Positions 3,229 through 29,183 of a DNA stretch of 64,000 nucleotides are shown here, piece after piece (within the stretch, counting starts at the first letter, position 1; every line of letters begins with the position of its first letter). Source of the stretch: Escherichia phage ph0011; the sequence record OP557969.1, one strand, 5' to 3'. Under the pieces are notes generated by a model, which searched no databases, was not told the origin of the DNA, and saw nothing but the letters and a program-made list of their open reading frames with translations. Made by a program: the position numbers and the translations under genes.

Positions 3229-3460
3229 GTAGTCATAAGTAATCATATATAAACATTTAAGTAATCATTTATAATCACAGTAGTGAACAGTAGTGAGTAC
3301 TAGAGTACAGGAATGTGCACGTTTAATCAAGAACGTAGCAGTACTGATATGCCACTAAGTAGGCAGAGGAAGTCTGCCGTACTTTGTAGTTTCCAAGCTC
3401 CTTTTCCATTTTGCAAATTACATCAACTGTAATCAAAAGTAATCACATAATGATTAGTAC
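3229..3460. repeat. cluster of short direct repeats (GTAATCA about 5 copies, ACAGTAGTGA x2) and a GGCAGA/TCTGCC hairpin
   Basis: Seen by eye in non-coding sequence. Confidence 0.45.
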
Positions 3461-3744: not shown

Positions 3745-3775
3745 GAAAGCTATTGACATTATGATTCAGTACTGT
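3745..3775 (+). promoter_or_regulatory. sigma70-type promoter with no ORF downstream
   Basis: TTGACA, about 16-bp spacer, TATAAT with TG upstream of -10. Confidence 0.5.
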
Positions 3776-5075: not shown

Positions 5076-5438
5076 ATGGCGACTCAAATCAATAAAATTA
5101 TTGCTAACCTGGTTAACTTCCGTGAAGAGATGAAAGGTCTTCCGGCTGAAACGGTAAAAATTCACATTTCAGCTTATCGGGAACTTATTGCAATGTTACC
5201 GCTTAAGCGTGAACAATACGCCGCTACCGTGATGCTTGATGCGATGATCAATAAGATGATCGCCAGTGATTTAACGATGGTTTATCAGTACATGGGCGAA
5301 AATTTCGCGGTGTCTGGTAAGCCAGTACCAGGGATGGCAACTACTGAGGAATTGCACGGTTTAAATTTAAAACAAGATGCATGGGATAATATGCCTCGTT
5401 TCCTGGTATGGGCTGACAGTGGCAAAATTTACAAATAA
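5076..5438 (+). CDS. hypothetical protein (120 aa)
   Basis: Start at MATQINK after hairpin and RBS AAGAGAG; track N-extension covers promoter. Confidence 0.65.
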   Translation: MATQINKIIANLVNFREEMKGLPAETVKIHISAYRELIAMLPLKREQYAATVMLDAMINKMIASDLTMVYQYMGENFAVSGKPVPGMATTEELHGLNLKQDAWDNMPRFLVWADSGKIYK

Positions 5439-5530
5439 GTTTAATAAAGTACTTGCATACTAAGTTAAAACAAGTATAATACTTTCTATCAGGTGGGGAA
5501 TAGTTCCCCACTATATAAGAGGATTAAAAA

Positions 5531-5770
5531 ATGGCTAAATCAAAAATGTTCTTAGGTCACAAAAACAAAACTCATTGGAATGTAAGCCTTTGGATTAATA
5601 ACGATGAATCATTATACCGGTTGGCCCTGGACTTTATTGCCGCCAATACTAATCGCAATGATGCGGCCCGTCATATGATGTTATTTTTAGAACAGACTGG
5701 ACAAGATAAAACACCGGACGGATTCAAATATAGCACTACTGCGATCCGTGCGGCGATGGTTGGAATGTAA
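5531..5770 (+). CDS. hypothetical protein, paralog of 7569..7808
   Basis: Shared GHKNKTHWNVSLWINN and TPDGFKYSTTAIRAAMVGM; own cassette. Confidence 0.7.
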   Translation: MAKSKMFLGHKNKTHWNVSLWINNDESLYRLALDFIAANTNRNDAARHMMLFLEQTGQDKTPDGFKYSTTAIRAAMVGM

Positions 5771-6445: not shown

Positions 6446-6730
6446 GTAGTTTACAAATCTTTACAATTGCCGGTATTGACTTAAAATGTCAGTACTGGCA
6501 TAATGTATTCATTGGCAGATAAGCCGTGGCCCATAGGGTGCGGAAGTGTATCTATAGAAAAATTAGTTTAGTACAGTTACAATTGTGCACCCTGTGGGTT
6601 AGCTGTTGTCATGGGGTATATTATGCCAGTACTTGATAATGCTGTCAATACTTTTTTACTATTCAGTACTGAAAACTATTTGATAAAAAGTACTTGCAAA
6701 CTATGTTTAAAGGCGTATAATGTTTTACAT

Positions 6731-6803
6731 CAGGACGGGGAACGAAATAAGTAACTTCCCGTTAAGTAGCCCAGGAGTAAGGCATACGAAAAACTCCCCT
6801 GAT
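6731..6803 (+). other. structured about 75-nt leader element (copy 1), candidate small RNA or regulatory leader
   Basis: Starts at promoter +1 (CAGGACGGGGAACG...ACTCCCCTGAT), followed by a second promoter; near-identical copy at 17354-17424. Confidence 0.45.
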
Positions 6804-8676: not shown

Positions 8677-8840
8677 CAACGCGGGGAGATAATAACTCCC
8701 CGTTACTTTTTCAGTACTGAATCATTTAATAGACGGATCTATGCACCCGGTGGGTTAGTGACTGTTTCGTCTTGATGTAGTAATTATGCCAGTACTGGAT
8801 GCGGTTGTCAAGAACTATTTTTCAAATACTTTTTACTAAA

Positions 8841-8906
8841 GTACTTGCTAATAGTTTTTAAACGCGTATAATGTTTTACATAGCAAGGGGAAACGGTTTC
8901 CCCTGG
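8841..8906 (+). promoter_or_regulatory. early promoter plus 5' leader hairpin cassette
   Basis: AGTACTTGCTA, TATAAT, GGGGAAAC-g-GTTTCCCC hairpin. Confidence 0.6.
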
Positions 8907-9245: not shown

Positions 9246-9545
9246 ATGAAAATTGCAATCATCGCCCTGGCTTTATCTGTTTCCTCTTTCGCTGTTAATG
9301 CGTCATTAGATGTAAGTAGTGAAAAATTCATTCAGTGCACTGTTGCAATGACCGATGAAAGAACTGGCGAGATTGTATTAAAGGATTTAGAGATCCAGCC
9401 GGAAGCATTTAAAAACGGCCCGTTCCATGAAGAAGACGAAAACGGTAGTACAACAATTTATTATGATGCTAGTACTAAACGCGGTTCGGTCACGGTTATG
9501 GATACTGAGAAAGTAACTCATACAGGCGTTATTAATTGCCGTTGA
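9246..9545 (+). CDS. small secreted or periplasmic protein (99 aa) with Sec-type signal peptide
   Basis: N-terminus MKIAIIALALSVSSFAVNA with AxA-like cleavage site; two Cys in mature part. Confidence 0.6.
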   Translation: MKIAIIALALSVSSFAVNASLDVSSEKFIQCTVAMTDERTGEIVLKDLEIQPEAFKNGPFHEEDENGSTTIYYDASTKRGSVTVMDTEKVTHTGVINCR

Positions 9546-10568: not shown

Positions 10569-10788
10569 TCGTTTACCAGTCCACTAGCACCGCCTAGAGT
10601 CGATTCTAACGCATTAAACTGATTATCTGATGAATAGCCCTAGCTGGTGGCGTTAATGCCGTTAGAACGCGATTGAGGACGTTTAAAGTATTTTGCAAAA
10701 AGTAATAAAAAGTACTTGCACGATTAAGAGATTAGAGTATAATTAATTACATCAAGACAAGACACCTTAACTAACTGAGGATATAAAG

Positions 10789-10941
10789 ATGAATACTTAT
10801 GAACTGGATTGTTTCACTTTACAAGTAATGTCAGTATGCAGTAAAAAAGATTGGTCATCAAAGGAATTTAAAGCAGTTATTGCGTGTGCAAAACACGGCA
10901 AGACTATCAATGAAACGGCATCAATCATTGATAAACTTTAA
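10789..10941 (+). CDS. micro-protein (about 50 aa), Cys-containing
   Basis: Promoter (TTGCAC..TATAAT), RBS GAGGAT, ATG; below ORF-track cutoff; hand-read. Confidence 0.4.
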   Translation: MNTYELDCFTLQVMSVCSKKDWSSKEFKAVIACAKHGKTINETASIIDKL

Positions 10942-11012
10942 AAAATAGTTTGACAATAGTTTTAAGTACTGCGATAATACATACATCAACTACTGAATAG
11001 GAATAAAAAACA

Positions 11013-11240
11013 ATGGCTATCGTAATCACTCGCGTAACTGGTACTACTGGCACTGCTTCAACTGTTGCTGTAATTACTAATAAGAAAGGTGCAGAATTAC
11101 ATTTTGCAATGGATAAATGGGCCGTTAATGAGTTTGGTCAGTGGGCAAGTGTAGAATACATTGAAACCTATCAAGTGCCATCGATTAGCTTAACTGATTT
11201 AGGTGTAGAACGTATCCTTTGCCTGGATGAATTAAATTAA
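11013..11240 (+). CDS. hypothetical protein (75 aa), Thr/Gly-rich N-terminus
   Basis: Promoter TTGACA..CGATAAT upstream; RBS AATAGG. Confidence 0.55.
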   Translation: MAIVITRVTGTTGTASTVAVITNKKGAELHFAMDKWAVNEFGQWASVEYIETYQVPSISLTDLGVERILCLDELN

Positions 11241-11326
11241 AAAAGTACTTGCAAAGTAAATCAAATAAAGTATAATACATTACATCAAGGGGAGAAAATG
11301 GTTCTCCCCACTAAGAGGAAACTAAT

Positions 11327-11470
11327 ATGAAAACTTGTCAATGTGGTAAAAAATCTATTACGGGTTTGAAACGGGGCGTTGCACTTTGCCAGTATCATTA
11401 TAATGCTCAAGTATGGGGTAAAGAATGGGCCGACCAGGTGGAAGCAGCAAAGAAAGCAAAAAGTAAGTAA
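11327..11470 (+). CDS. micro-protein (about 47 aa), possible zinc-ribbon (CxCG ... CQYH)
   Basis: Complete cassette: promoter, GGGGAGAA/TTCTCCCC hairpin, RBS AAGAGGAAA, ATG; hand-read. Confidence 0.45.
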   Translation: MKTCQCGKKSITGLKRGVALCQYHYNAQVWGKEWADQVEAAKKAKSK

Positions 11471-11482
11471 AAATATTATCAC

Positions 11483-11520
11483 AGTACTATTGACATAGAT
11501 TGATAGTACTGGCATAATAG
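11483..11520 (+). promoter_or_regulatory. class-2 early promoter (AGTACTATTGACA ... AGTACTGGCATAAT)
   Basis: TTGACA, 17-bp spacer, CATAAT, AGTACT flanking both elements; same module at about 14366 and 22582. Confidence 0.55.
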
Positions 11521-11551
11521 ATTTTATCAAGACAACTAAGAGGAAATTAAA

Positions 11552-11896
11552 ATGGCTAACATCAATACTATAGCAGCACAAAATATCAACCTGTCTTCTG
11601 TTGAAGTTGTACACATTGCCGCCCGGCGTTGGTTCCAGGCGTCTTATGGTAATACTTATTTCTCTTTAACGGTAGATGTTGAAATCAATGGCGAATTTAT
11701 TGAAGTAGTAAACGTGCCGTTCCAATATGGCTACGGGGATCATTTTGACACTGTAGCAATGGAAGAATTTAGCAAGGTTATTAATATGGAAGGTAAAGAG
11801 TTTTTACGCGGTTCTTATCTTTCCCGTTTTTGCCGTGATAATAATATTACTGTTTATAGTTCTGTTAGTGATGTTAAACGCAAAAAAGATCTTTAA
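11552..11896 (+). CDS. hypothetical protein, paralog of 18128..18451
   Basis: Shared GNTY, YGYG and C-terminal DVKRKKD; RBS AAGAGGAAA. Confidence 0.7.
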   Translation: MANINTIAAQNINLSSVEVVHIAARRWFQASYGNTYFSLTVDVEINGEFIEVVNVPFQYGYGDHFDTVAMEEFSKVINMEGKEFLRGSYLSRFCRDNNITVYSSVSDVKRKKDL

Positions 11897-11976
11897 TTAG
11901 CTTTACTTTATGCAGATACTTTGATATAGTGTCTGCATAGGGGAAAGAAATTAAATCAACTTAAGAGGATAGTAAA

Positions 11977-12246
11977 ATGAAAAATATCAGTACTTTAATC
12001 GATGCAGGTACACATGTTCGTCGGTCTATGGTTGCAACCAGTTCTACAAAACAAGTAGCGAGCGGTTATCTTGTATTTGTGCACGATGGTAAACTCCTGG
12101 AACGTTCAATCAATTTTGATGTTAAAAACAATTGCCGTTTTATTATCTTTCGCCGTGAACAATATAAGATCGACATTCCAGCGAAGCCCATTAGCGGGGC
12201 GTACAACGTGCAATCATTGTTTGAGCGTCAACCATACACCTATTAA
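11977..12246 (+). CDS. hypothetical protein (89 aa)
   Basis: RBS AAGAGGA upstream. Confidence 0.6.
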   Translation: MKNISTLIDAGTHVRRSMVATSSTKQVASGYLVFVHDGKLLERSINFDVKNNCRFIIFRREQYKIDIPAKPISGAYNVQSLFERQPYTY

Positions 12247-12297
12247 TCAAAACAACGTTAGCGGTCGATTTAGGCCGCTTATACTGGGGATTATATA

Positions 12298-12570
12298 ATG
12301 AATACTAATCAAGTACTGAACGAGATTGAAAGCATCATTAAACCGATGAAGCGTACTGATGCAATGTTAACACCGGAAGAATGCCGCTTATATGAGCGTT
12401 ACAGCGTCGAACAAGTACAGGAAATGGCTATGGCTATCCCTGCCGTTCAACAGCCTGAGAACGCAGTACAGGACGTTACAGGGGATTATAACATCAATCC
12501 AGTACTAGGGAAGATTACACCAATTACCGAAGAACAAAAAGACTACTTAAGCCAGTACTTAAAAGGTTAA
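12298..12570 (+). CDS. hypothetical protein (90 aa)
   Basis: RBS GGGGA upstream; acidic. Confidence 0.6.
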   Translation: MNTNQVLNEIESIIKPMKRTDAMLTPEECRLYERYSVEQVQEMAMAIPAVQQPENAVQDVTGDYNINPVLGKITPITEEQKDYLSQYLKG

Positions 12571-12575
12571 TTAAT

Positions 12576-12785
12576 ATGCTTACTGTACAGGATAAGATCG
12601 ACATCTTAAAGGTTAATATGTATGTGATTGATGCCGTACCTGGTAAAGTATTTGCATACGATGACACCACTGTAAGCAATTTCTACTATAGCCAGGAAGT
12701 GGGGGATCTTTCTGTACAGTCGGTTATTGAAAACGTAGTTAATGCAGCGTATGAGCATTTACTTTCAAATAGTACTTGCAATTAG
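12576..12785 (+). CDS. hypothetical protein (69 aa)
   Basis: ATG 6 nt after upstream stop. Confidence 0.5.
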   Translation: MLTVQDKIDILKVNMYVIDAVPGKVFAYDDTTVSNFYYSQEVGDLSVQSVIENVVNAAYEHLLSNSTCN

Positions 12786-12833
12786 TTTTTAAACGCGTAT
12801 AATGTTTTACATGAAGGGGAGAAATAGTACTCC
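12771..12833 (+). promoter_or_regulatory. early promoter plus 5' leader hairpin cassette
   Basis: AGTACTTGCAA, TATAAT, GGGGAGAAA-tag-TACTCCC hairpin. Confidence 0.55.
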
Positions 12834-12853
12834 CACTAATTAAGGAATAGTAA

Positions 12854-13000
12854 ATGAAAGCATCAAAAAAGAGTACTAACAAGAAAGCACGTTCAACTTT
12901 AGATGGGGTATTCCCTTTGCGTTTTGTGGATGAAGTAGTTTCCTACCCGCTGGGCCTTACTCCTGAGATGGTAGAAAGTTTGCGTAAATCTAAAAAATAG
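12854..13000 (+). CDS. micro-protein (about 48 aa), basic
   Basis: Cassette (promoter, hairpin, RBS TAAGGA) then ATG; hand-read. Confidence 0.4.
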   Translation: MKASKKSTNKKARSTLDGVFPLRFVDEVVSYPLGLTPEMVESLRKSKK

Positions 13001-13081
13001 TACTTGCAATTAGTTTTTAGTACTGTATAATGTTTTACATGAAGGGGAGAAATGATTCTCCCCAAGAACAGGAGAAACAAA

Positions 13082-13234
13082 ATGAAACAATACAACGCTC
13101 GGTTTGATGTTACTATCGGCAACGGCAAAGGTCAATTCTCTTTCAGTACTCGTAAGAGTTATACAGAAAACTTCTTGCGTAATTGTGCACTGACCGCCGC
13201 ACAAATTAAACATTATTTTCAGGCTAAAAAATGA
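13082..13234 (+). CDS. micro-protein (50 aa)
   Basis: Start at MKQYN after hairpin and RBS AGGAGA. Confidence 0.55.
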   Translation: MKQYNARFDVTIGNGKGQFSFSTRKSYTENFLRNCALTAAQIKHYFQAKK

Positions 13235-13320
13235 AATCATTAGCTTATTATAGTTCGGCCCTGGTCGGTGCATTGATCGCGGCATTGTTAGTAGCTTATC
13301 TATTCTTTATGGTGATTTAA
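13231..13320 (+). CDS. tiny hydrophobic peptide (about 29 aa), predicted single transmembrane helix
   Basis: ATGA overlap with upstream stop; MKSLAYYSSALVGALIAALLVAYLFFMVI; hand-read. Confidence 0.35.
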   Translation: MKSLAYYSSALVGALIAALLVAYLFFMVI

Positions 13321-13458
13321 ATGAATCCTAACGGTATAATTTACAGTACTCCTAAAACGAAAGCAGATAAAGCCAAAGCACGTAAAGCGAAAGTAAAGGA
13401 GTACATCAAGCAAGGCATGACACGAAAGGCGGCAGTACTGAAAGCTAAAAATAAATGA
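13321..13458 (+). CDS. lysine-rich micro-protein (about 45 aa)
   Basis: ATG directly after previous stop; highly basic; hand-read. Confidence 0.35.
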   Translation: MNPNGIIYSTPKTKADKAKARKAKVKEYIKQGMTRKAAVLKAKNK

Positions 13459-13459
13459 A

Positions 13460-13565
13460 AAAAGTGGTTGACTTCGGTCAGCCATTTTGCTATTATATAT
13501 TCATTGAGAGATAGCTCACTAGCCCACGGGGTGCGGGAGTGTATCTATTATATAAGCATTGAGTA
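13460..13565 (+). repeat. GGGTGCG-core intergenic element with its own TTGACT..TATTATATA promoter
   Basis: Related copies at about 17190, 20460 and 23200. Confidence 0.5.
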
Positions 13566-13606
13566 CTGAAAACTATTTTAAAAGTATTTGTAGAAAGTAC
13601 TTGCAA

Positions 13607-13660
13607 ACTATCTCAATAGGCGTATAATGTTTTACATCAAGGGGGAAACGGTTTCCCCTA
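13607..13660 (+). promoter_or_regulatory. early promoter plus 5' leader hairpin cassette
   Basis: AGTACTTGCAA, TATAAT, GGGGGAAAC-g-GTTTCCCC hairpin. Confidence 0.6.
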
Positions 13661-13678
13661 GTAATAAGGAATAAAATC

Positions 13679-14020
13679 ATGACTATTGCAATTGTACAAT
13701 CTAACTTTGAAAACGAAATCATCGCCCAAGCACTGCGTTTAAATGATGGTCGGGCCGAAATTAATTACGGTTTCAATTCAGGCGGTTGTGAAAAATATCA
13801 GTACTTTATAACTGCTGATGGCGGTGTCCTGGGTATTAATACAGTTATTGTAAACATTCAGAAAATTAATTTCAATGATCCAGACGATAGCCAGTTTTAC
13901 ATTATAGGCGTAGACGTGAACTATGAGGATGACTCACTAACTGATGATTACACTGGCGAGAAGTTAGAAAGTGCATACGGTGAAGATGATTATCAGTCAG
14001 TACCGGAAGATTTTGAATAA
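13679..14020 (+). CDS. hypothetical acidic protein (113 aa)
   Basis: RBS TAAGGA after hairpin; Asp/Glu-rich C-terminus. Confidence 0.65.
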   Translation: MTIAIVQSNFENEIIAQALRLNDGRAEINYGFNSGGCEKYQYFITADGGVLGINTVIVNIQKINFNDPDDSQFYIIGVDVNYEDDSLTDDYTGEKLESAYGEDDYQSVPEDFE

Positions 14021-14143
14021 TATTAAAAAATAGTTTGACAATAGATTATAGTACTGTATAATATTTTACATGAAGGGCAACGGGAAGTTTTTAAAACTTC
14101 CCTATAGGGAGAATAGTTCTCCCACTAACAGAGAGAAAACAAA

Positions 14144-14356
14144 ATGGCTAATATCTGCACTGTACTGAAAAATGCAAAACAAGTTTTATTTTCTGATCAC
14201 GATCATTTAAACAAGGATATTACTGGCGTTCGGAATATCAAAGATGTAAAAAGTGTTATGGGCATCTATTGCAATATGAAACGTGTTGGAACGTTCGGTA
14301 ATAAATTTCTATACCAAGCGGGGGATTACAATTTTACACTGACTATCATTAACTAA
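14144..14356 (+). CDS. hypothetical protein (70 aa)
   Basis: Promoter, double hairpin, RBS AGAGAGA. Confidence 0.6.
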   Translation: MANICTVLKNAKQVLFSDHDHLNKDITGVRNIKDVKSVMGIYCNMKRVGTFGNKFLYQAGDYNFTLTIIN

Positions 14357-14438
14357 AAATATTATCACAGTACTATTGACATAGATTGATAGTACTGGCA
14401 TAATAGATTTTATCAATTACACTACTAAGGAATTAAAA

Positions 14439-14618
14439 ATGGCTATCATCGCAAAAACTGAAATCATCGGCCTGGATTCTATCATCATGACGTTTGAAGA
14501 TCAAAAAGGTATGTATGTAGTTTCCTATGGTGATTATGTTCGGGAGTATGAAACGGTAGACGAAGCCTTTGAAAGTTACATTCGCCAGGTGAATAAAGCA
14601 TACGACGATTACCGCTAA
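14439..14618 (+). CDS. micro-protein (about 59 aa)
   Basis: Class-2 promoter, RBS TAAGGA, ATG; hand-read. Confidence 0.45.
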   Translation: MAIIAKTEIIGLDSIIMTFEDQKGMYVVSYGDYVREYETVDEAFESYIRQVNKAYDDYR

Positions 14619-14731
14619 AATATATTACCAGTACTATTAAAGATATTGACAACGTTTGATAGTACTGGCATAATAAGTTTTATAAACAGTAGTCAAATAG
14701 TAGTTAACTTAACAAAAGAGAGAGAAACAAA

Positions 14732-14875
14732 ATGATCGCACTGGATTCATTCATCGATGCAGTTCTGGCAAAAACTGGCGAGGATCTGACCGCAGAACAA
14801 TACGCGATGATCGAGCAATGCCAGCAAGACGGTAAATCGGTGAAAGATACTGTTAAGATTATCCGCAAGATGTAA
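14732..14875 (+). CDS. micro-protein (about 47 aa)
   Basis: Class-2 promoter, RBS AGAGAGAGA, ATG; hairpin follows; hand-read. Confidence 0.4.
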   Translation: MIALDSFIDAVLAKTGEDLTAEQYAMIEQCQQDGKSVKDTVKIIRKM

Positions 14876-14981
14876 GATTATAAGCCCATTAGTTAACGCT
14901 GGTGGGCTTTAATCATTTACCCTATACAATGCCAGTACTAAACCGTTTATCTCGTTAGAATGCATTACAGGACGTTTGACA

Positions 14982-15179
14982 ATGATTAGCATGAAATCAG
15001 TACAAAAACAAATAGAAACATTATCAAAAATTAAACGTAAACAGTACTCATTAGAATATAATATCAATGGTAACTATCATCTAATGAAAGAGAATAATTT
15101 TATCGTCATTGATGAATCATTGCAAATTATTAGTATAGTACTGAAAGCATTAATTAATGATAGAAAAAGGTTAAAATAA
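14982..15179 (+). CDS. hypothetical protein (about 65 aa)
   Basis: Track ORF begins at a TTG; first ATG chosen; no clear RBS. Confidence 0.35.
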   Translation: MISMKSVQKQIETLSKIKRKQYSLEYNINGNYHLMKENNFIVIDESLQIISIVLKALINDRKRLK

Positions 15180-15436
15180 TGGCAGTAGGATTCGCGAAAG
15201 ATGGAGCCGAGCAAGATGAGATTAACGCAGTTATTCAAGCCGCCGTTAACCACGCTAGAAAGCAAATTAACGCACAAATAGAATCACTGATACATTGCCT
15301 CGACTGCGGCGATAAAATCCCTGAGAATCGCCGACAGGCTGTTAAGGGTTGTAAGTACTGCATAACTTGCCAGGAGGATCATGATAGTACTTTTAAACGT
15401 CCCCCGCGTAATTGTTGGCATAGATCTATGAGATAA
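15179..15436 (+). CDS. TraR/DksA-family C4 zinc-finger protein
   Basis: C-x2-C-GDKIPENRR ... C-x2-C spacing typical of TraR-like proteins; start overlaps upstream stop. Confidence 0.7.
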   Translation: MAVGFAKDGAEQDEINAVIQAAVNHARKQINAQIESLIHCLDCGDKIPENRRQAVKGCKYCITCQEDHDSTFKRPPRNCWHRSMR

Positions 15437-15500
15437 AAAGTAATTGACAGTACTGAAAGATAGTGTATAATGTTTTATATCTTAACTGAGGATAGAAATC

Positions 15501-15857
15501 ATGGGAATACAACATATCACGCGGACCACTGACAATGGCGAGATCACTGGTTATCAAGTACAGGGCAAAGTAGCACAATTGCAGTACTGGTTTGTTAAAC
15601 GTGGAATCATTGCACCGGATCTTGATTATGACCGTGTAGCGTTTATTGATTCTCTTTATGTTGATCCTGATAGTCGGGGCAATGGTGAAGGTAACGAATT
15701 AATGAATGCCTTTATTGATGCCGCCGATGATTCAGATTGTATCATCTTAGAATGCGATACGGGAGAAGATAACGCCTTTAATCTTAAAGAATGGTACGAA
15801 GGTTTCGGATTCGAGGTATTGATAGATAGTGAATATCCTATCATGATTTTATCATAG
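15501..15857 (+). CDS. probable small GNAT-family acetyltransferase
   Basis: FIDSLYVDPDSRGNGEGNELMNAF resembles GNAT motif A; 118 aa. Confidence 0.4.
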   Translation: MGIQHITRTTDNGEITGYQVQGKVAQLQYWFVKRGIIAPDLDYDRVAFIDSLYVDPDSRGNGEGNELMNAFIDAADDSDCIILECDTGEDNAFNLKEWYEGFGFEVLIDSEYPIMILS

Positions 15858-15936
15858 TACTTGCATTTAGTTTTCAGTACTGTTATAGTACTTGCATCAA
15901 GGGGAAACATCTTCCCCTACTAAGAGGAAATAAAAA

Positions 15937-16125
15937 ATGGAAAACTTATCAAGTATTTTAGTACAAGATGATTTCGGTAATCCTGGAAGTGCTATCATTG
16001 TTCGGGGCAATAAAGCAACGTTTGTTATTGCTGGTGGACCCGTACAGCGTAGCATTAAAAATAATGCTGTTACCATTAATAATGTACGCTATCGCTTAGA
16101 TAAAGAATTAATTCATAAACTGTAA
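15937..16125 (+). CDS. hypothetical protein (62 aa)
   Basis: Promoter, GGGGAAAC..TTCCCC hairpin, RBS AAGAGGAAA. Confidence 0.6.
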   Translation: MENLSSILVQDDFGNPGSAIIVRGNKATFVIAGGPVQRSIKNNAVTINNVRYRLDKELIHKL

Positions 16126-16152
16126 TATTAATTTAATAGAGGATAACAATAA

Positions 16153-16476
16153 ATGTACATTCATACTACTGTCACAAAGGAAGTCCGTTGCCAGTTCGAA
16201 AGTATTCCGGGCGTATGTTTCATCACTGGTACGTTTTCCCCTGGTGATCGTGATAATCCAGTACTGTTACAGTTACGCCATCCATTATGGGATAAAGCAT
16301 TTGATCTGCCGTTGAATGAATTCGCAACCACTGCTGATAAGTACATTAAAAATATTCGCGAGAATGATTGCCTATTCATTAATGCTTTTAGTGATGCCGC
16401 GTTAAGTGAGATCCATGCTGTATTGGTTGCAATCATGGAATCAATGGAGAAAACTATATTCAAACAAGGTGAATAA
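16153..16476 (+). CDS. hypothetical protein (107 aa)
   Basis: RBS AGAGGA upstream. Confidence 0.6.
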   Translation: MYIHTTVTKEVRCQFESIPGVCFITGTFSPGDRDNPVLLQLRHPLWDKAFDLPLNEFATTADKYIKNIRENDCLFINAFSDAALSEIHAVLVAIMESMEKTIFKQGE

Positions 16477-16481
16477 AAACT

Positions 16482-16542
16482 ATTGACAATGCAATCCAGT
16501 ACTGTATAATAGTTTACATGAAGGGGAGAAATGATTCTCCCC
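16482..16542 (+). promoter_or_regulatory. early promoter plus 5' leader hairpin cassette
   Basis: TTGACA, AGTACTGTATAAT, GGGGAGAA-atga-TTCTCCCC perfect palindrome. Confidence 0.65.
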
Positions 16543-16559
16543 ACTAAGAGGAAAGAAAA

Positions 16560-16772
16560 ATGCAAGGTCAACTAATCGTTCGTAAATGGTCTGATACTAA
16601 CGAAAAACCGTGGGATGTACAATACATCGCCCCAAATGGTGAATCCAGATATCAACCAGGTGTAACGCATAGTACTGAGCAATTCGCCGCCGCTCATCGC
16701 GAACGTCTGTTACAATCAATGCAGCACGGTTCCGGTGAAAAATTCATTCAGGATCATTGGCTGAAAGATTAA
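16560..16772 (+). CDS. hypothetical protein (70 aa)
   Basis: ATG after hairpin and RBS AAGAGGAAA. Confidence 0.65.
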   Translation: MQGQLIVRKWSDTNEKPWDVQYIAPNGESRYQPGVTHSTEQFAAAHRERLLQSMQHGSGEKFIQDHWLKD

Positions 16773-16858
16773 AAAGTACTTGCACAGTACTGAATAAAGT
16801 GTATAATGTTTTATATCGGAAGGGGAATAGTTCCCCTCCTAACAAAGAGGAAAGTATA

Positions 16859-17032
16859 ATGGTCCAGGTAGAATTAACAGTACTGAAAGATCTGTTTTAT
16901 CGGATTGGTACTACTGGCGAATATCCGAAGGGTGATAATGCAAAACTTTACGTATCACTCGACTTATGGCAACGCGAACAATTAGCAACGGCCTGGCGTA
17001 AAGGCAAAGCAGATAGCGAGGTGAAAGCATGA
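16859..17032 (+). CDS. micro-protein (57 aa)
   Basis: Start at MVQVEL after hairpin and RBS AAGAGGAAA. Confidence 0.55.
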   Translation: MVQVELTVLKDLFYRIGTTGEYPKGDNAKLYVSLDLWQREQLATAWRKGKADSEVKA

Positions 17033-17178
17033 AAGAATTCTTATTTGAAGTAGTGTTTCAAGGTGTCGGTAATAACCAACTGATTCGATCAAGTGGTTAT
17101 AATGTTAACCAGGCATGGAATAACATTAAACAAATGTACCCTAACGCTATCACATATCGCAACCCGAAAGAAGTTTAA
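17029..17178 (+). CDS. micro-protein (about 49 aa)
   Basis: ATGA overlap with upstream stop; hand-read. Confidence 0.35.
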   Translation: MKEFLFEVVFQGVGNNQLIRSSGYNVNQAWNNIKQMYPNAITYRNPKEV

Positions 17179-17189
17179 AAATATTTGAA

Positions 17190-17290
17190 AAAGGGATTGA
17201 CTCCGGTCAGTCCCTTTGCTATTATATACGCATAGAAACAAATCAGCCCACAGGGTGCATAAATGTATCTATTGTTTGCTGGTGGCTAGT
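17190..17290 (+). repeat. GGGTGCG-core intergenic element with own promoter
   Basis: GGGATTGACTCCGGTCAGTCCCTTTGCTATTATATA then AGCCCACAGGGTGCAT; near-identical 5' part at 20460 and 23200. Confidence 0.5.
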
Positions 17291-17353
17291 ACTGAAAACT
17301 ATTTTTAAAAAAGTACTTGCATTGTACTTAGAATCAAGTATAATGTTTTACAT

Positions 17354-17424
17354 CAGGACGGGGAACGAAATAAGTAACCCCGTTAAGTAGTCCAGGAGTA
17401 AGACATACGAAAAACTCCCCTGAT
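17354..17424 (+). other. structured about 75-nt leader element (copy 2)
   Basis: Near-identical to 6731-6803; between tandem promoters upstream of 17494. Confidence 0.45.
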
Positions 17425-24756: not shown

Positions 24757-24984
24757 ATGATTGATAATAATTTTAAGGGAGTCCCTGTGCGTATTTTAAC
24801 TCAAGCAGAACACCACGAAAGACTTATTAACAATATGGCTATGATAATGTATAAGTCACATAAACGTGGTATTGCCTATAAGCATGAATTAGTACTGGAA
24901 CTATTCATTGGGACTAACTATCAGGAAAGGTATGTCAACGATTGGATTTGGTATTTAATTGAAGATATAACGAGTAAACTATGA
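24757..24984 (+). CDS. FamB small protein
   Basis: Motif FIGTNYQERYV; first array member. Confidence 0.55.
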   Translation: MIDNNFKGVPVRILTQAEHHERLINNMAMIMYKSHKRGIAYKHELVLELFIGTNYQERYVNDWIWYLIEDITSKL

Positions 24985-25175
24985 TAATTTTAACTAAAGA
25001 AGAATATCAATCACTGTTACGTAAAAACTACGTAAAGATTTACAATACAGACACACACGTAGAACGAATGGAGTTATACCTTTTGATTACATTGGGAACT
25101 AACTATCAGGAAAGATGGGTGATTCAATATATGGATACATTGAAAAATAAAATATTGTCCACGAGGAAACAATGA
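24981..25175 (+). CDS. FamB small protein
   Basis: LGTNYQERWV; ATGA overlap. Confidence 0.55.
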   Translation: MIILTKEEYQSLLRKNYVKIYNTDTHVERMELYLLITLGTNYQERWVIQYMDTLKNKILSTRKQ

Positions 25176-25381
25176 AAACTATAACACGAACCAAATCATT
25201 AGGTCTTATCTTGAAATACATGGACTTAATGGTGGATATCAGCAAAGACCTTCCTAAAACTGCAATTGAAGTTGCAAGAGCAGAGTACCGTCTATTAGCA
25301 GTACTGAATACTAACTACCAGGATGAATATGTTGACGATTGGATTCTATCATTAAAAAAAGATATAAAGAGTAAACTATGA
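25172..25381 (+). CDS. FamB small protein
   Basis: LNTNYQDEYV; ATGA overlap. Confidence 0.55.
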   Translation: MKTITRTKSLGLILKYMDLMVDISKDLPKTAIEVARAEYRLLAVLNTNYQDEYVDDWILSLKKDIKSKL

Positions 25382-25590
25382 TTTTTTTAACGCCAGAAGA
25401 ATATAAGAAACGTTTCAATTCTGTCCAGATTGACATTTTACTTATATACAATTCAAATGCAGACCTTGGCTTATCAAGGGTATTAGAAAAAGATTTACTT
25501 ATGGGTGCATTTTTGGATACAGACTTTCAGGTGTATTATGTAGGGGAATACTTAATTGCACTTCAGAATTACATTAAGAGTAAACTATGA
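25378..25590 (+). CDS. FamB small protein
   Basis: LDTDFQVYYV; C-term YIKSKL; ATGA overlap. Confidence 0.55.
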   Translation: MIFLTPEEYKKRFNSVQIDILLIYNSNADLGLSRVLEKDLLMGAFLDTDFQVYYVGEYLIALQNYIKSKL

Positions 25591-25799
25591 ATAGCATTAA
25601 CTCAAATCAATATACCGAACGCGTCGCTGCAAGGCAACTTGAAATCCTCATATTATATGAAGAGGCTGATGATTTGAACTTAGCATCAGTATTGGAAAAT
25701 GAAATACTATTGGGTGCATTCCTTGGTACTGACTATCAGGAGCATTTCTTGAATGAGTATATAGTTGCCCTCCAGAAATACATTAAGAGCAAACTATGA
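25587..25799 (+). CDS. FamB small protein
   Basis: LGTDYQEHFL; close paralog of 25378; ATGA overlap. Confidence 0.55.
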   Translation: MNSINSNQYTERVAARQLEILILYEEADDLNLASVLENEILLGAFLGTDYQEHFLNEYIVALQKYIKSKL

Positions 25800-26014
25800 A
25801 ACATTTAAGTAATTACGAGAAGAATAAAATTATCGTTGCTGCAATAAACAAATATTTTACACTTCCTCACACAGAAGGTTTATGTGTAAGGGAACACAGG
25901 ATAAACACCACCGATATACGCATGATGGCTGTACTGGGGACTAACTTTCAGGAAGAGTATGTTGTTGCACACATAGTTGCCCTCACTGATTTAATAAGGG
26001 ACAAATGCAAATGA
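25796..26014 (+). CDS. FamB small protein
   Basis: LGTNFQEEYV; ATGA overlap. Confidence 0.55.
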   Translation: MKHLSNYEKNKIIVAAINKYFTLPHTEGLCVREHRINTTDIRMMAVLGTNFQEEYVVAHIVALTDLIRDKCK

Positions 26015-26229
26015 AAGACATAAACACTCAAGAATATCTTAAACGATTAGAACAAGGGAAGAACTTTAGACTTCAAGTTTACGATGATGAATCACTAACA
26101 TCCAATGAAAAGTATGTTTTACTAACAGACTCATCATTAATACCATTTGTGGGAACGAACTATCAGGAGGTTATGGTAGACAACCACATCACGGCCTTAA
26201 AATGTTATGTCAGGGATTTAGGTAAATGA
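26011..26229 (+). CDS. FamB small protein
   Basis: VGTNYQEVMV; start set at ATGA overlap. Confidence 0.5.
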   Translation: MKDINTQEYLKRLEQGKNFRLQVYDDESLTSNEKYVLLTDSSLIPFVGTNYQEVMVDNHITALKCYVRDLGK

Positions 26230-26483
26230 AACACTTAACACTGGATGAATATGAAACTATAGTTCGTAAACTAACCCCTATAGCAAGGATAGTCTACGAT
26301 GACCCCAGCCTTACATGGAACCAAATGCGAGCTAAAGTTAATGAGCTATGGTTGTTGTACTTTATGGGGACTCAATATCAAGAGAAATATTGTACCGAGT
26401 ATATTGAACAACTAATGAATGTTATACAGGATAAACTAGATGATTATTGGCTCACAAAGCATGAAGATTTTATCAGGGGTTGA
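26226..26483 (+). CDS. FamB small protein
   Basis: MGTQYQEKYC; ATGA overlap. Confidence 0.55.
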   Translation: MKHLTLDEYETIVRKLTPIARIVYDDPSLTWNQMRAKVNELWLLYFMGTQYQEKYCTEYIEQLMNVIQDKLDDYWLTKHEDFIRG

Positions 26484-26727
26484 GTATCAGACTGCCCTCT
26501 TCTCTCTTCTAAACACCCTCCGCACGAACAATAAACTTTATAATTCCAGTACTGCTGATATTGTCAACGCTGATGTATATCTTAATAAATTTATAGGGAC
26601 TAACTATCAAGAACTGTTTGTTTTACGATATATCTCTACATTAAGAAACGAAATATCAGATAAAACCCGTCAAGCCAGAAGAGAATGGAAGAATGCGACA
26701 AAGACTAAATCACAAAATGTATTGTAA
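26461..26727 (+). CDS. FamB small protein
   Basis: IGTNYQELFV; start at internal MKILSGVEY. Confidence 0.5.
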   Translation: MKILSGVEYQTALFSLLNTLRTNNKLYNSSTADIVNADVYLNKFIGTNYQELFVLRYISTLRNEISDKTRQARREWKNATKTKSQNVL

Positions 26728-26944
26728 ACTATTACAGGAACTGGCACAGAAACACTATGATACAATATCTTCCATATTACCCTATGATATCATGCGTTTA
26801 ATTCATAGTGAGGCAGAGATGTTAGTACTGATGACCGGTACTGATAAAATAGCAATCACCAGATCGATAGAGCAATATATTGATGCACACTGTCAATGTA
26901 TTAGAACTGAGATATGGAGGCGAGTAAATGAAAGTACTGAATGA
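26693..26944 (+). CDS. FamB-like small protein (divergent)
   Basis: MTGTDKIAIT in motif position; start uncertain. Confidence 0.4.
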   Translation: MRQRLNHKMYCKLLQELAQKHYDTISSILPYDIMRLIHSEAEMLVLMTGTDKIAITRSIEQYIDAHCQCIRTEIWRRVNESTE

Positions 26945-27143
26945 GTTTCAGTATCATTGGAGGTTACAAGCAATAAGAGGGAAAGTTGTTAGTATTTCTT
27001 TAGACAAGTCTATTGCACAAGAGGACAAATGTGTTATAATAGCTGAAATGAAGTTGGGTGCTTTCGTAGGGACAAACTATCAAAACATCTACACAGACGT
27101 ATTATTAAGTGCCTTACGCAACAAGGTGTTATCCAGAGAATGA
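26928..27143 (+). CDS. FamB small protein
   Basis: VGTNYQNIYT. Confidence 0.55.
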   Translation: MKVLNEFQYHWRLQAIRGKVVSISLDKSIAQEDKCVIIAEMKLGAFVGTNYQNIYTDVLLSALRNKVLSRE

Positions 27144-27358
27144 GAAAATTAATAGGTTACGAATATGTTAAGCTTCTGAAAACCTGTAGTAGTAGCAGGG
27201 TAAAGATTCAATCTGATAAGAGCATCCCTGCCAACCTAAAACATGTAATGATAGCTGAACTCTATGCAGGGGCACTCATAGGGACAAACTATCAACAAAT
27301 GTATATAGACATGTGGGTTGATGCATTAGTCAAGGAGATCCGAAGTAAATGCAAATGA
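27140..27358 (+). CDS. FamB small protein
   Basis: IGTNYQQMYI; ATGA overlap. Confidence 0.55.
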   Translation: MRKLIGYEYVKLLKTCSSSRVKIQSDKSIPANLKHVMIAELYAGALIGTNYQQMYIDMWVDALVKEIRSKCK

Positions 27359-27567
27359 TTAATTTAAGTAAAGATGAATATTATGTTCGTCTTGCAAAAA
27401 CTTATCCAGCACGTAACGCCGTTTATAATAGTAACATTATTGAACGCTCAAAGAAGTTGATCGTAGTAAATGAGATTAAGATGCTTTCAGTCTTAGGAAC
27501 AAACTATCAAGAGAAAGCTGTACTGTTGTTAATTGATGCCCTCAAGAGAGAGATACAAAGTAAATGA
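27355..27567 (+). CDS. FamB small protein
   Basis: LGTNYQEKAV; start at ATGA overlap. Confidence 0.5.
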   Translation: MINLSKDEYYVRLAKTYPARNAVYNSNIIERSKKLIVVNEIKMLSVLGTNYQEKAVLLLIDALKREIQSK

Positions 27568-27800
27568 TTCATTTATCTTACCATGAATATCAAAAACGTT
27601 TAAATGCATCAAGGAATATAAGGATTCAAATCTTCAATAATAAAAGATTGAAATCTGAAGCCAAAAAAATCAAAATGATAGAAGCAGAGTTATGCAACTT
27701 CCTGGGGACGAACTATCAGGATGATAAGGTAACAAACTATCTTAGAGAACTAATGATTAGTATCAAGAGTAAATGCAATGCTTTGGAGAATAAAAAATGA
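27564..27800 (+). CDS. FamB small protein
   Basis: LGTNYQDDKV; ATGA overlap. Confidence 0.55.
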   Translation: MIHLSYHEYQKRLNASRNIRIQIFNNKRLKSEAKKIKMIEAELCNFLGTNYQDDKVTNYLRELMISIKSKCNALENKK

Positions 27801-28054
27801 TCAATTTAAGTAAAGATGAATATACCGAGCGTATGACAAAAATTACGCACAAACGTAATACAATCTATCACAACCAAGAAATTCAACACAGTAAGAAAAT
27901 GATCATGATGCGTGAGTTAAAGATGGGTGTATTCTTGGGAACAAACTATCAAGAGCCAGAAGTAAATCGCTTAATTGCTGAGTTACTAATGGAAATCAAA
28001 GGTAAGCTGTACTTTTATCAAATGACCCAACCACTGAGGTGTACTGAACGATGA
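27797..28054 (+). CDS. FamB small protein
   Basis: LGTNYQEPEV; ATGA overlap. Confidence 0.55.
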   Translation: MINLSKDEYTERMTKITHKRNTIYHNQEIQHSKKMIMMRELKMGVFLGTNYQEPEVNRLIAELLMEIKGKLYFYQMTQPLRCTER

Positions 28055-28311
28055 GTACTATGAGTACTATGAATAAAATTAATAACATCAGATTATCAGA
28101 AAGATTTGATAGAATTGGTGAAGCCAGTAGAAGATACAATAGGGAATATGGTCATTTAAGCTTTTCTTTGGAAAAGAGATATGAACTTGAAGCAGAGTTT
28201 AAAATGCAGAGTCTCTTAGGTACACAGTACCAAGATCATTATGTAGAAAATTGGATTTCACTTCTAATCCAATCAATTTATGTAAGGAGTATTAAATGCA
28301 AAATGGAATGA
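28051..28311 (+). CDS. FamB small protein
   Basis: LGTQYQDHYV; ATGA overlap. Confidence 0.55.
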   Translation: MSTMSTMNKINNIRLSERFDRIGEASRRYNREYGHLSFSLEKRYELEAEFKMQSLLGTQYQDHYVENWISLLIQSIYVRSIKCKME

Positions 28312-28526
28312 TATACTTAACCAACGAAGAATTTCAAGAAAAAATGATTAAATCAGGTAAGATTACTCTTGAACATATACCAAATCAATCAGTATATGAA
28401 GTAGCAGCGAATGTATTGTTTCAGAAGCTACCTTACTTTCTGGGAACAGATAAACAAGAATTTTTGGTACAAAATATGATTGAGCATCTTCTAATGAGTA
28501 TTAGGGAAAAAGTAAATGCAACATGA
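28296..28526 (+). CDS. FamB small protein (LGTDKQ variant)
   Basis: FLGTDKQEFLV. Confidence 0.5.
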   Translation: MQNGMIYLTNEEFQEKMIKSGKITLEHIPNQSVYEVAANVLFQKLPYFLGTDKQEFLVQNMIEHLLMSIREKVNAT

Positions 28527-28776
28527 AATTATATACTTAACACATGATGAGTTAAAAGAAAGACTAGATAAATCCAAAAGACTTACAAATCAACTTCCTC
28601 ACAACCCAAACCAAACCCCAGCGGAAAGGAGTGCAGAAGTTTTATTCCAGTCTTTGTCATACCTTCTTGGAACTGATAGGCAGGAGTATCACGTTGAACG
28701 TATAATTAAATATCTTAAAATTACTATTCAGGAAAAGATATATGAACATCAATATAAAAATCTTGACGGTCAATGA
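28516..28776 (+). CDS. FamB small protein (LGTDRQ variant)
   Basis: LLGTDRQEYHV; close paralog of 28296. Confidence 0.5.
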   Translation: MQHEIIYLTHDELKERLDKSKRLTNQLPHNPNQTPAERSAEVLFQSLSYLLGTDRQEYHVERIIKYLKITIQEKIYEHQYKNLDGQ

Positions 28777-28993
28777 ATATCATAATATTATAATGAAGAC
28801 TAATAGTGCAATTTCTAAAAAATCAAATCCAAAATACATACTGGAGCACACATTTGAAGAACGTCAATTAGCTTTAGTTGAAGCAAAACTTCTTGCACTC
28901 CTAGGAACAAACTATCAAGAAGAGTACGTTAGAAAACTAATATACCTTTTAACTAAACACATCAGGAAAAGAAATGCAGTACTTGACCGATGA
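28742..28993 (+). CDS. FamB small protein
   Basis: LGTNYQEEYV. Confidence 0.5.
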   Translation: MNINIKILTVNEYHNIIMKTNSAISKKSNPKYILEHTFEERQLALVEAKLLALLGTNYQEEYVRKLIYLLTKHIRKRNAVLDR

Positions 28994-29183
28994 CGAATAC
29001 GGTGTTATCATCCTTGATGTTATCAATAAAGAATACCACAGGAAACAACGTTACGCTTGTTATGAAGATAAGCAGCTTTCTATAGCTGAACAACAATTAG
29101 TTCATTTATTAGGAACAAACTATCAAGAACAATGCACTGAACGTTACCTGTATCTTCTGTCGAGGAAAGCACAAAGATTATGA
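28974..29183 (+). CDS. FamB small protein
   Basis: LGTNYQEQCT. Confidence 0.5.
   Translation: MQYLTDDEYGVIILDVINKEYHRKQRYACYEDKQLSIAEQQLVHLLGTNYQEQCTERYLYLLSRKAQRL

Follow-up and report, generated by a model that had tools for sequence, protein, structure and literature searches.

Eight small genes and their expression signals

This analysis concerns eight short open reading frames (ORFs), designated m1–m8, in a 64,000-nucleotide stretch of Escherichia phage ph0011 DNA (sequence record OP557969.1), referred to in its full length as the window. The window belongs to a jumbo coliphage of the genus Asteriusvirus (121Q/PBECO4/phAPEC6 group), and its closest match is UE-S1 (96.7%). An earlier note on this DNA had listed the eight as micro-ORFs, i.e., ORFs below a 60-residue cutoff, at positions 10,789–17,178, and recomputation of the frames reproduced each one where it had been placed, on the plus strand and with an ATG start. 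The micro-ORFs, their signals and the genes with which they share operons are the following:

10716–10743, plus strand: m1 promoter, AAAAAGTAC-TTGCAC-16-TATAAT (promoter scan)
10789–10941, plus strand: m1, 50 amino acids (aa), from ORF recomputation; some relatives lack the cassette
11249–11276, plus strand: m2 promoter, TTGCAA-16-TATAAT (promoter scan)
11289–11309, plus strand: hairpin in the 5′ untranslated region (UTR) of m2, GGGGAGAA-AATGG-TTCTCCCC
11327–11470, plus strand: m2, 47 aa, putative metal-binding mini-protein of CCCH type (C4, C6, C21, H24)
12776–12803, plus strand: m3 promoter (promoter scan)
12815–12837, plus strand: 5′-UTR hairpin of m3, weaker, with a 5-bp core
12854–13000, plus strand: m3, 48 aa, with a basic N-terminus
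13004–13063, plus strand: promoter (13004–13031) and 5′ hairpin (13044–13063) of the three-gene operon 13082–13458
13082–13234, plus strand: first gene of this operon, 50 aa, phrog_7119 (153 nt in the phAPEC6, WPEC3 and fEgEco12 annotation)
13231–13320, plus strand: m4, 29 aa, hydrophobic, predicted single helix; ATGA overlap (13231–13234) with the upstream gene
13321–13458, plus strand: m5, 45 aa, Lys-rich, phrog_29913; GGTGA Shine–Dalgarno (SD) sequence inside the end of m4
13461–13488, plus strand: intrinsic-terminator hairpin closing the m4/m5 operon, with a TTGACT −35 hexamer in its 5′ arm (z = −5.6)
14376–14404, plus strand: m6 promoter, TTGACA-17-TGgCATAAT (extended −10), without hairpin
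14439–14618, plus strand: m6, 59 aa, phrog_9374
14646–14674, plus strand: m7 promoter (promoter scan)
14732–14875, plus strand: m7, 47 aa, helical, phrog_34103
16780–16839, plus strand: promoter (16780–16807) and 5′ hairpin (16818–16839) of the two-gene operon 16859–17178
16859–17032, plus strand: gene upstream of m8, 57 aa, phrog_10572
17029–17178, plus strand: m8, 49 aa, phrog_37188; ATGA overlap (17029–17032) and GAGGTGA SD
17190–17217, plus strand: terminator hairpin at the end of the m8 operon (z = −5.8); its module type is that of 13461–13488

For m1, m2, m3, m6 and m7, an own promoter and/or hairpin with a ribosome-binding site had been proposed, and a sigma-70-type promoter was located 34–57 nt upstream of each, with hairpins at m2 and m3. 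The coupling of m4, m5 and m8 to their neighbours is likewise borne out by the gene junctions: m4 and m8 overlap the preceding gene through ATGA, and m5 starts at the base directly after the m4 stop codon (TAAATG). An SD of at least 4 nt at a spacing of 4–12 nt precedes six of the eight micro-ORFs (TAAGGA at 7 nt for m3), the exceptions being m4, which is coupled, and m7, where the leader is a purine-rich AAGAGAGAGAAA that recurs in the array of small genes around it. Among all ORFs of 25–60 aa in this array (4.9–24 kb), an SD of at least 4 nt is found for 12 of 37 on the plus strand and for 0 of 44 on the minus strand.

Purifying selection on the micro-ORFs

Ten relatives were fetched for comparison (L001–L010), nine of good quality together with CMSTMSU, an UNVERIFIED record (L002, MH494197). 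All eight ORFs are intact in every good-quality relative (n = 9) that has the locus. In CMSTMSU, five of the eight are disrupted, m2, m3, m5 and m6 by frameshifts and m4 by an in-frame 6-nt deletion; these disruptions look like sequencing errors, not biology. When the unique sequences of the eight ORFs are aligned, the 144 variable columns are distributed over codon positions 1, 2 and 3 as 31/20/93 (p = 1.9e-14). Taken singly, the excess at position 3 is most pronounced for m2 (p = 3e-5), m8 (1e-4), m7 (7e-4) and m6 (1.4e-3), followed by m5 (0.029), m4 (0.035), m1 (0.037) and m3 (0.058). In comparisons beyond the genus, dN/dS is 0.06 for m2 against Phapecoctavirus phiWec181, 0.06 and 0.07 for m6 against rV5 and phiWec181, respectively, and 0.37 for m1 against Salmonella phage Munch. 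Between m7 and its Munch homologue, the synonymous sites are saturated and 67% of the residues are kept. As judged from sequence comparison, the eight micro-ORFs are genuine protein-coding genes under purifying selection, of which m3 and m4 remain the least certain.

Annotation in sister phages

The micro-ORFs had also been described as missed, which does not hold for the public records, where fEgEco12 has all eight annotated (m1–m8 as g013, g015, g020, g022, g023, g026, g027 and g036) and phAPEC6 seven. Since sister-phage records already annotate them, the missed status is an artefact of the earlier 60-aa length filter, and the existence of the eight genes is already known, in the form of hypothetical proteins. 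For phAPEC6, where seven are reported as annotated, the m1 cassette is absent and an intact m3 is unannotated. UE-S1 has seven annotated, each with a ribosome-binding site, m4 being the exception; 121Q, WPEC3 and SD-2_S15 annotate what they carry, except for m4 in 121Q and m8 in SD-2_S15. The short m4 is thus annotated in phAPEC6 (gp520c), WPEC3, SD-2_S15 and fEgEco12. Four of the eight match PHROGs (m5, 29913; m6, 9374; m7, 34103; m8, 37188), all of them classified as unknown function.

Once the eight ORFs are counted, the coding fraction of 10789–17178 rises from 0.59 to 0.76. The 60-aa cutoff conceals about one-fifth of the coding capacity of the region, and standard phage annotation recovers it. 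With their true starts, two neighbours also fall below 60 aa, i.e., 13082–13234 (50 aa) and 16859–17032 (57 aa). The former was listed as 60 aa because an ATG at 13052, in the loop of the leader hairpin, is in frame with it.

Some of the existing entries appear questionable. UE-S1 (L001) has a minus-strand coding sequence (CDS) annotated at 8701–8904, approximately window 13010–13213, where phAPEC6, WPEC3, SD-2_S15 and fEgEco12 instead have the plus-strand 50-aa gene, and the UE-S1 entry is probably a mis-call. In fEgEco12, the 47-aa homologue of m7 (10703–10846) is labelled tail fiber protein, a label that has propagated to UniRef and finds no support in Pfam or PHROGs; the homologue of window 9246–9545 (fEgEco12 5284–5583) is labelled protein spackle, for which Pfam gives no support.

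A cassette array that coincides with the terminal repeat

All eight micro-ORFs lie inside a predicted direct terminal repeat (DTR), 6.8–13.5 kb from its start:

3358–24690, plus strand: DTR, about 21 kb, inferred extent (blastn against fEgEco12)

The genome ends of fEgEco12 were determined experimentally by restriction analysis, giving a DTR of 20,993 bp (PMC13070987), and the DTR of Sharanji is 20.7 kb (PMC11895373). By blastn, nucleotide 1 of fEgEco12 corresponds to window position 3358 and the end of its DTR, 20,993, to approximately 24,690. Homologous loci are annotated as terminal repeats also in vB_Ec-M-J, fENko-Kae01 and Muenster. Because the fEgEco12 ends map onto the window in this way, the DTR coincides with a one-directional array of about 35 cassettes, each comprising an UP element, a promoter, a 5′ hairpin, an SD and one to three small genes. 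The genes within a cassette are partly translationally coupled, and a strong terminator closes some of the operons. A scan with a relaxed sigma-70 pattern (typical site AAAAAGTAC-TTG(A/C)(A/C)N-16/17-TATAAT) detected 35 near-consensus promoters on the plus strand, all between 3753 and 23803, and four on the minus strand across the whole 64-kb window.

An A-rich, UP-like element heads each cassette. Upstream of the −35 hexamers at 3753–23803, AAAAAGTAC or AAAATAGT is found at most promoters, and AGTACT/GTAC recurs at nearly every cassette and also within many spacers (cagtactg). The upstream sequence that bears AGTACT/GTAC may be an UP-like element or have another role.

Of the neighbouring genes tested in this part of the array, only two have recognisable domains:

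15179–15436: DksA/TraR-type C4 zinc finger gene (domain match, E = 1e-11)
15501–15857: GNAT acetyltransferase gene (domain match, E = 4e-9); this cassette is missing from SD-2_S15 and PBECO4

Leader hairpins and cassette exchange

A stable hairpin follows the promoter at 25 of the 35 sites. The 20 leader hairpins that were aligned represent 15 distinct stems of 5–9 bp, which start 11–15 nt past the −10 box and are followed by the SD. In a loop-anchored comparison, compensatory differences (GC to AT, CG or TA, and the reverse) are found at stem pairs 4, 6, 7 and 8. MAFFT combined with RNAalifold gave no consensus structure for the same 20 hairpins, because stems of variable length are out of register. 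In several leader hairpins, such as those at 13044–13063 and 16523–16542, the loop contains an ATG after GGAG in the 5′ arm (GGGGAGAAATGATTCTCCCC); as the loops of other copies have no ATG, this is probably incidental.

Whole cassettes have been gained and lost between relatives, with indel breakpoints that recur at the promoter and leader repeats. At 10757|10999, the m1 cassette has been lost in five relatives, and at 12823-34|12991-95, where two nearly identical promoters flank the gene, m3 has been lost in four. The breakpoints 15454|15875 and 16125|16475 delimit two more cassettes. The same cassette layout precedes homologous small genes in rV5 and phiWec181. In comparison with these phages, m2 and m6 are conserved in their coding sequences, whereas promoters and leaders differ, which points to the protein as the conserved payload.

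The encoded proteins

For m2, a word-indexed search gave six close homologues, and an exhaustive profile search extended the family to 176 cluster representatives (E ≤ 1e-3), in which a module of about 40 aa occurs either alone or N-terminally in proteins of 100–220 aa. In a diverse sample of 60 members, C6, C21 and H24 never vary, and the first Cys is retained within C-x(1-2)-C. The pattern consists of two ligand pairs, C-x(1-2)-C and C-x2-H, and conservation extends to G13, L14 and the tail G-K-x-W-A-D. The members sampled are unnamed metagenomic proteins, and one homologue lies within a phage-like array of small genes. No consistent Pfam or NCBIfam match was obtained for the module. By these profile searches, m2 represents an uncurated C-x(1-2)-C...C-x2-H family outside the curated domain libraries searched, and because the Cys/His pattern is conserved across the 176 clusters, metal binding by m2 is plausible.

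The earlier note had likened m2 to a zinc ribbon, which is upheld for the Cys/His pattern and not for the fold. The AlphaFold2 (AF2) model (pLDDT 78.6) has an N-terminal knuckle followed by helices 22–30 and 32–45; C21 and H24 are placed where the first of these helices begins, and the model lacks the two beta-hairpin knuckles of a classical ribbon. We take the predicted fold to be treble-clef-like rather than a zinc ribbon. Placement of the last two ligands at a helix start resembles zinc-knuckle and treble-clef mini-domains, but m2 has no significant PDB, Pfam, NCBIfam or fold match to these. The only match in a PDB sequence search was uS14 (E = 0.57, not significant), and Foldseek returned nothing. 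A likeness to this zinc-binding ribosomal protein is seen at the level of motif, where C-x2-C-G...G-L-C in uS14 compares with C-x(1-2)-C-G ... L-C-x-x-H in the m2 family. A match of m2 to RsfA was compositional and under the curated cut-off.

The description of m4 as a hydrophobic single helix, followed by the Lys-rich m5, is supported by hydropathy: its best 19-residue Kyte–Doolittle window scores 2.82, within the top 0.7% of decoy ORFs. A KdpF match for m4 was rejected as compositional and below the curated cut-off, as were aureocin A53 and the C-terminus of a type III secretion system (T3SS) ATPase for m5, and an SMF SAM domain for the ORF starting at 13052. m5 exists in two allelic forms of 45 and 47 aa. 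For m6, the predicted fold is a beta-meander with a C-terminal helix. PDB sequence searches with m5, m6, m7 and m8 gave no matches.

No paralogy among the eight was detected by blastp. A profile comparison of m1 and m7 (hhalign) gave 82% probability over 31 columns, with a shared C-terminal motif, and the two are possibly distant paralogues. A helix-turn-helix (HTH) reading of this motif, G-K-S/T-x-x-E/D-T, was discarded: it has no Pfam support, and the peptides are too short to reach a recognition helix.

Distribution across phages

Several of the micro-ORFs occur well beyond Asteriusvirus. The counts below are matching records in the phage collection, except for m4, where the count refers to a local unmasked search of close relatives:

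m1: 11 records; beyond Asteriusvirus, Salmonella phage Munch (48%)
m2: 42 records; beyond Asteriusvirus, Phapecoctavirus (~90%) and an Aeromonas phage (67%)
m3: 24 records; none beyond Asteriusvirus
m4: all 10 close relatives; none found beyond Asteriusvirus
m5: 30 records; none beyond Asteriusvirus
m6: 238 records; beyond Asteriusvirus, rV5-like phages (rV5 73%), Phapecoctavirus and Klebsiella phages
m7: 40 records; beyond Asteriusvirus, Klebsiella phage fENko-Kae01 and Munch (67%)
m8: 44 records; beyond Asteriusvirus, Klebsiella phages RaK2 and Muenster (51–53%)

Owing to the low-complexity mask, no match to m4 was obtained by tblastn in the phage collection, and the local unmasked search found it absent from distant relatives. 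Several of the cross-genus homologues lie within annotated terminal repeats.

Comparison with other phage systems

The cassettes resemble the promoter-early stem-loop (PeSL) cassettes described in T4-type phages (Arbiol et al. 2010, PMC2839356; Comeau et al. 2014, PMC4122927). In both, an AT-rich element, a consensus sigma-70 early promoter, a GC-rich stem-loop and an SD precede a small ORFan, the unit is repeated in a hyperplastic region, and indels or replacements between close relatives break at the repeated regulatory motif. The position of the stem-loop differs: in T4-type PeSLs it lies mostly between the −35 and −10 boxes or over the −10 box, whereas here it is located in the 5′ UTR, 11–15 nt past the −10. 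The terminator/promoter modules at 13461–13497 and 17190–17226, with the −35 hexamer inside the stem, are a PeSL-like exception. The systems differ also in their carriers, here Rak2-like jumbo phages, whose layout recurs in rV5-like phages and Phapecoctavirus, and in that the array fills the terminal repeat. A PeSL-like layout in the DTRs of Rak2-like phages and in the early regions of rV5-like phages and Phapecoctavirus extends the shuffling mechanism beyond T4-type phages.

Closer relatives offer a parallel for expression. In PA5oct, a distant member of the Rak2 clade, DTR genes dominate the 5-min transcriptome by RNA sequencing (RNA-seq), and infection is rifampicin-sensitive and dependent on the host RNA polymerase (RNAP) (PMC7318152). 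In CBB, RpoD-like promoters precede short early ORFs that extend into the terminal repeat (PMC5259590). Both phages belong to the same clade and share long DTRs in which short hypothetical genes are densely arranged behind promoters of sigma-70 type. Early timing was measured by RNA-seq in PA5oct and is probable for Asteriusvirus by analogy and from the promoter consensus. An analogy may also be drawn with the pre-early genes of T5, which are small host-shutoff genes with very strong sigma-70 promoters, located in a long terminal repeat that is the first part of the genome to enter the cell.

Proposed function and alternative explanations

We consider it highly probable that the eight micro-ORFs are genuine small genes of a jumbo Asteriusvirus, that they reside in a DTR array of compact expression cassettes, and that they encode early accessory products. 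The host sigma-70 RNAP would transcribe the cassettes right after DNA entry; we infer such immediate-early transcription from the promoter consensus and by analogy with PA5oct. The leader hairpin is probably a 5′ stabiliser of the short mRNAs and/or an attenuator of upstream read-through. The products would be non-structural proteins acting early, and are probably dispensable accessory factors directed at host targets or competing phages. Among them, m2 would provide a CCCH metal-binding knuckle with two helices, and m4 a membrane-inserted single-helix peptide that is co-expressed with the basic m5. That the micro-proteins interfere with the host, as the earlier note had supposed, is plausible from their context, i.e., the sigma-70 promoters, the position in the terminal repeat and the DksA-like and GNAT neighbours; searches of Pfam, PHROGs, NCBIfam and PDB gave no homology to a characterised host-targeting protein.

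Not every one of the short frames needs to be translated. The shortest, above all m4 and m3, might be open frames in conserved transcribed spacer or regulatory cassette sequence, considering that at about 10% divergence short frames remain open by chance, that both have been detected in Asteriusvirus alone, that the codon-position bias is only nominally significant for m4 (p = 0.035) and has p = 0.058 for m3, and that m4 has no SD and is unannotated in UE-S1 and 121Q. We find this quite unlikely: both frames are unbroken in every good-quality relative that has them, their substitutions still favour position 3, and the deletion in m4 of CMSTMSU is in frame, though most other micro-ORFs there are frameshifted. 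Moreover, m4 has a hydrophobic window that few decoy ORFs reach and is fixed exactly between two constrained genes by its ATGA and TAAATG junctions, and m3 has its own promoter, hairpin and well-spaced TAAGGA, and moves as a cassette. Still less credible, and in our view very improbable, is that the promoter and hairpin form a selected recombination and transcription element for which the ORFs are largely neutral passengers. Cassette indels are indeed located at promoter repeats, the architecture is PeSL-like (PMC2839356) and ORFans are common among cargo genes, but neutral passengers would not be expected to display dN/dS values of 0.06–0.37, nor m2 and m6 coding sequences that are conserved between Asteriusvirus and phiWec181/rV5 when the regulatory parts are not. 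A further alternative, unlikely although less so than these two, accepts the genes as real and assigns them to the phage itself, for instance in regulating the early-to-middle switch, in chaperoning assembly or as parts of the virion. The lack of homology to known host-takeover or anti-defence proteins would be compatible with such roles, and three other DTR-encoded proteins of fENko-Kae01 are noted as identified by liquid chromatography–tandem mass spectrometry (LC-MS/MS). The tail fiber name of the m7 homologue in fEgEco12 would point the same way, but for a 47-aa protein it is unsupported in Pfam and PHROGs, and the virion proteome of phAPEC6 contains no homologue of any of the eight products. 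A patchy occurrence among near-identical phages, combined with exchange with unrelated genera, suggests dispensable accessory rather than core genes, and consensus sigma-70 promoters suggest expression before phage factors exist.

A number of observations weigh against the interpretation as early accessory genes, or parts of it. m3 is the least constrained of the eight (p = 0.058, pairwise dN/dS ~0.4), and m4 has 29 aa, p = 0.035 and no SD; taken singly, each of the two is weakly supported. No Asteriusvirus transcriptome, ribosome-profiling or proteomic data were found in the literature, nor any experimental work on the eight proteins. Searches of Pfam, NCBIfam, PHROGs and PDB linked none of the eight to a protein of known function, the fold searches on the micro-proteins were uninformative, and in one close m2 cluster Cys6 is replaced by Tyr (C6Y). 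The leader hairpins have no U-tract, and a terminator role is not evident from their sequence. The likeness to T5 is an analogy only, with no homology between the systems, and two-step DNA transfer is a T5 feature, not known for Asteriusvirus.

Extending the early-accessory interpretation, we tentatively propose, as a possibility rather less likely than not, that the Asteriusvirus DTR is a T5-like, first-entering host-takeover locus. In it, PeSL-type mobile cassettes would trade micro-genes among unrelated genera of large coliphages (Asteriusvirus, Vequintavirus, Phapecoctavirus, Klebsiella Rak2-like phages), and the cargo, including the widespread m2 CCCH family and the m4/m5 membrane/basic pair, would have specific host or anti-defence targets. 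As an observation, the original finding holds, and the biology is ordinary. The added value is modest: it lies in the framework of cassettes and DTR, in the sharing of genes across genera, and in the recognition of the uncurated CCCH family to which m2 belongs. The eight form a well-delimited set of constrained, early-type micro-proteins with strong native signals. Because they are constrained, have such signals and in several cases (m2, m6, m7, m8) cross genera, they are reasonable candidates for toxicity, interaction and anti-defence screens.

Further repeats in and beside the array

A conserved non-coding module is present three times per genome, at 6462–6733, 13452–13640 and 17181–17356. 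It opens with a very stable hairpin, with a UUCG/UCCG loop and compensatory changes in the arms, whose 5′ arm carries a TTGACT −35 hexamer. A TATTAT −10 comes after the hairpin, and then an invariant core, CCCAC-R-GGGTGC...GTATCTAT, and AGTACTGAAAACTATTTT. As a structured small RNA (sRNA), the repeat after m5 and m8 was provisionally rejected, since its predicted folding is not more stable than that of shuffled sequence (z −0.6 to −0.8) and only the terminator hairpin is significant. An Rfam scan of 3–29 kb gave a sub-threshold Trp-leader match alone, and none for the module. Two abundant non-coding RNAs (ncRNAs) have been described in the DTR of PA5oct (PMC7318152), and by analogy a small transcript from the repeated module is possible.

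Directly past the inferred end of the terminal repeat (~24,690), a tandem array begins. It extends over 24757–29183 and comprises about 20 paralogous genes of ~65–95 aa, arranged head-to-tail and mostly with overlapping stop and start codons.

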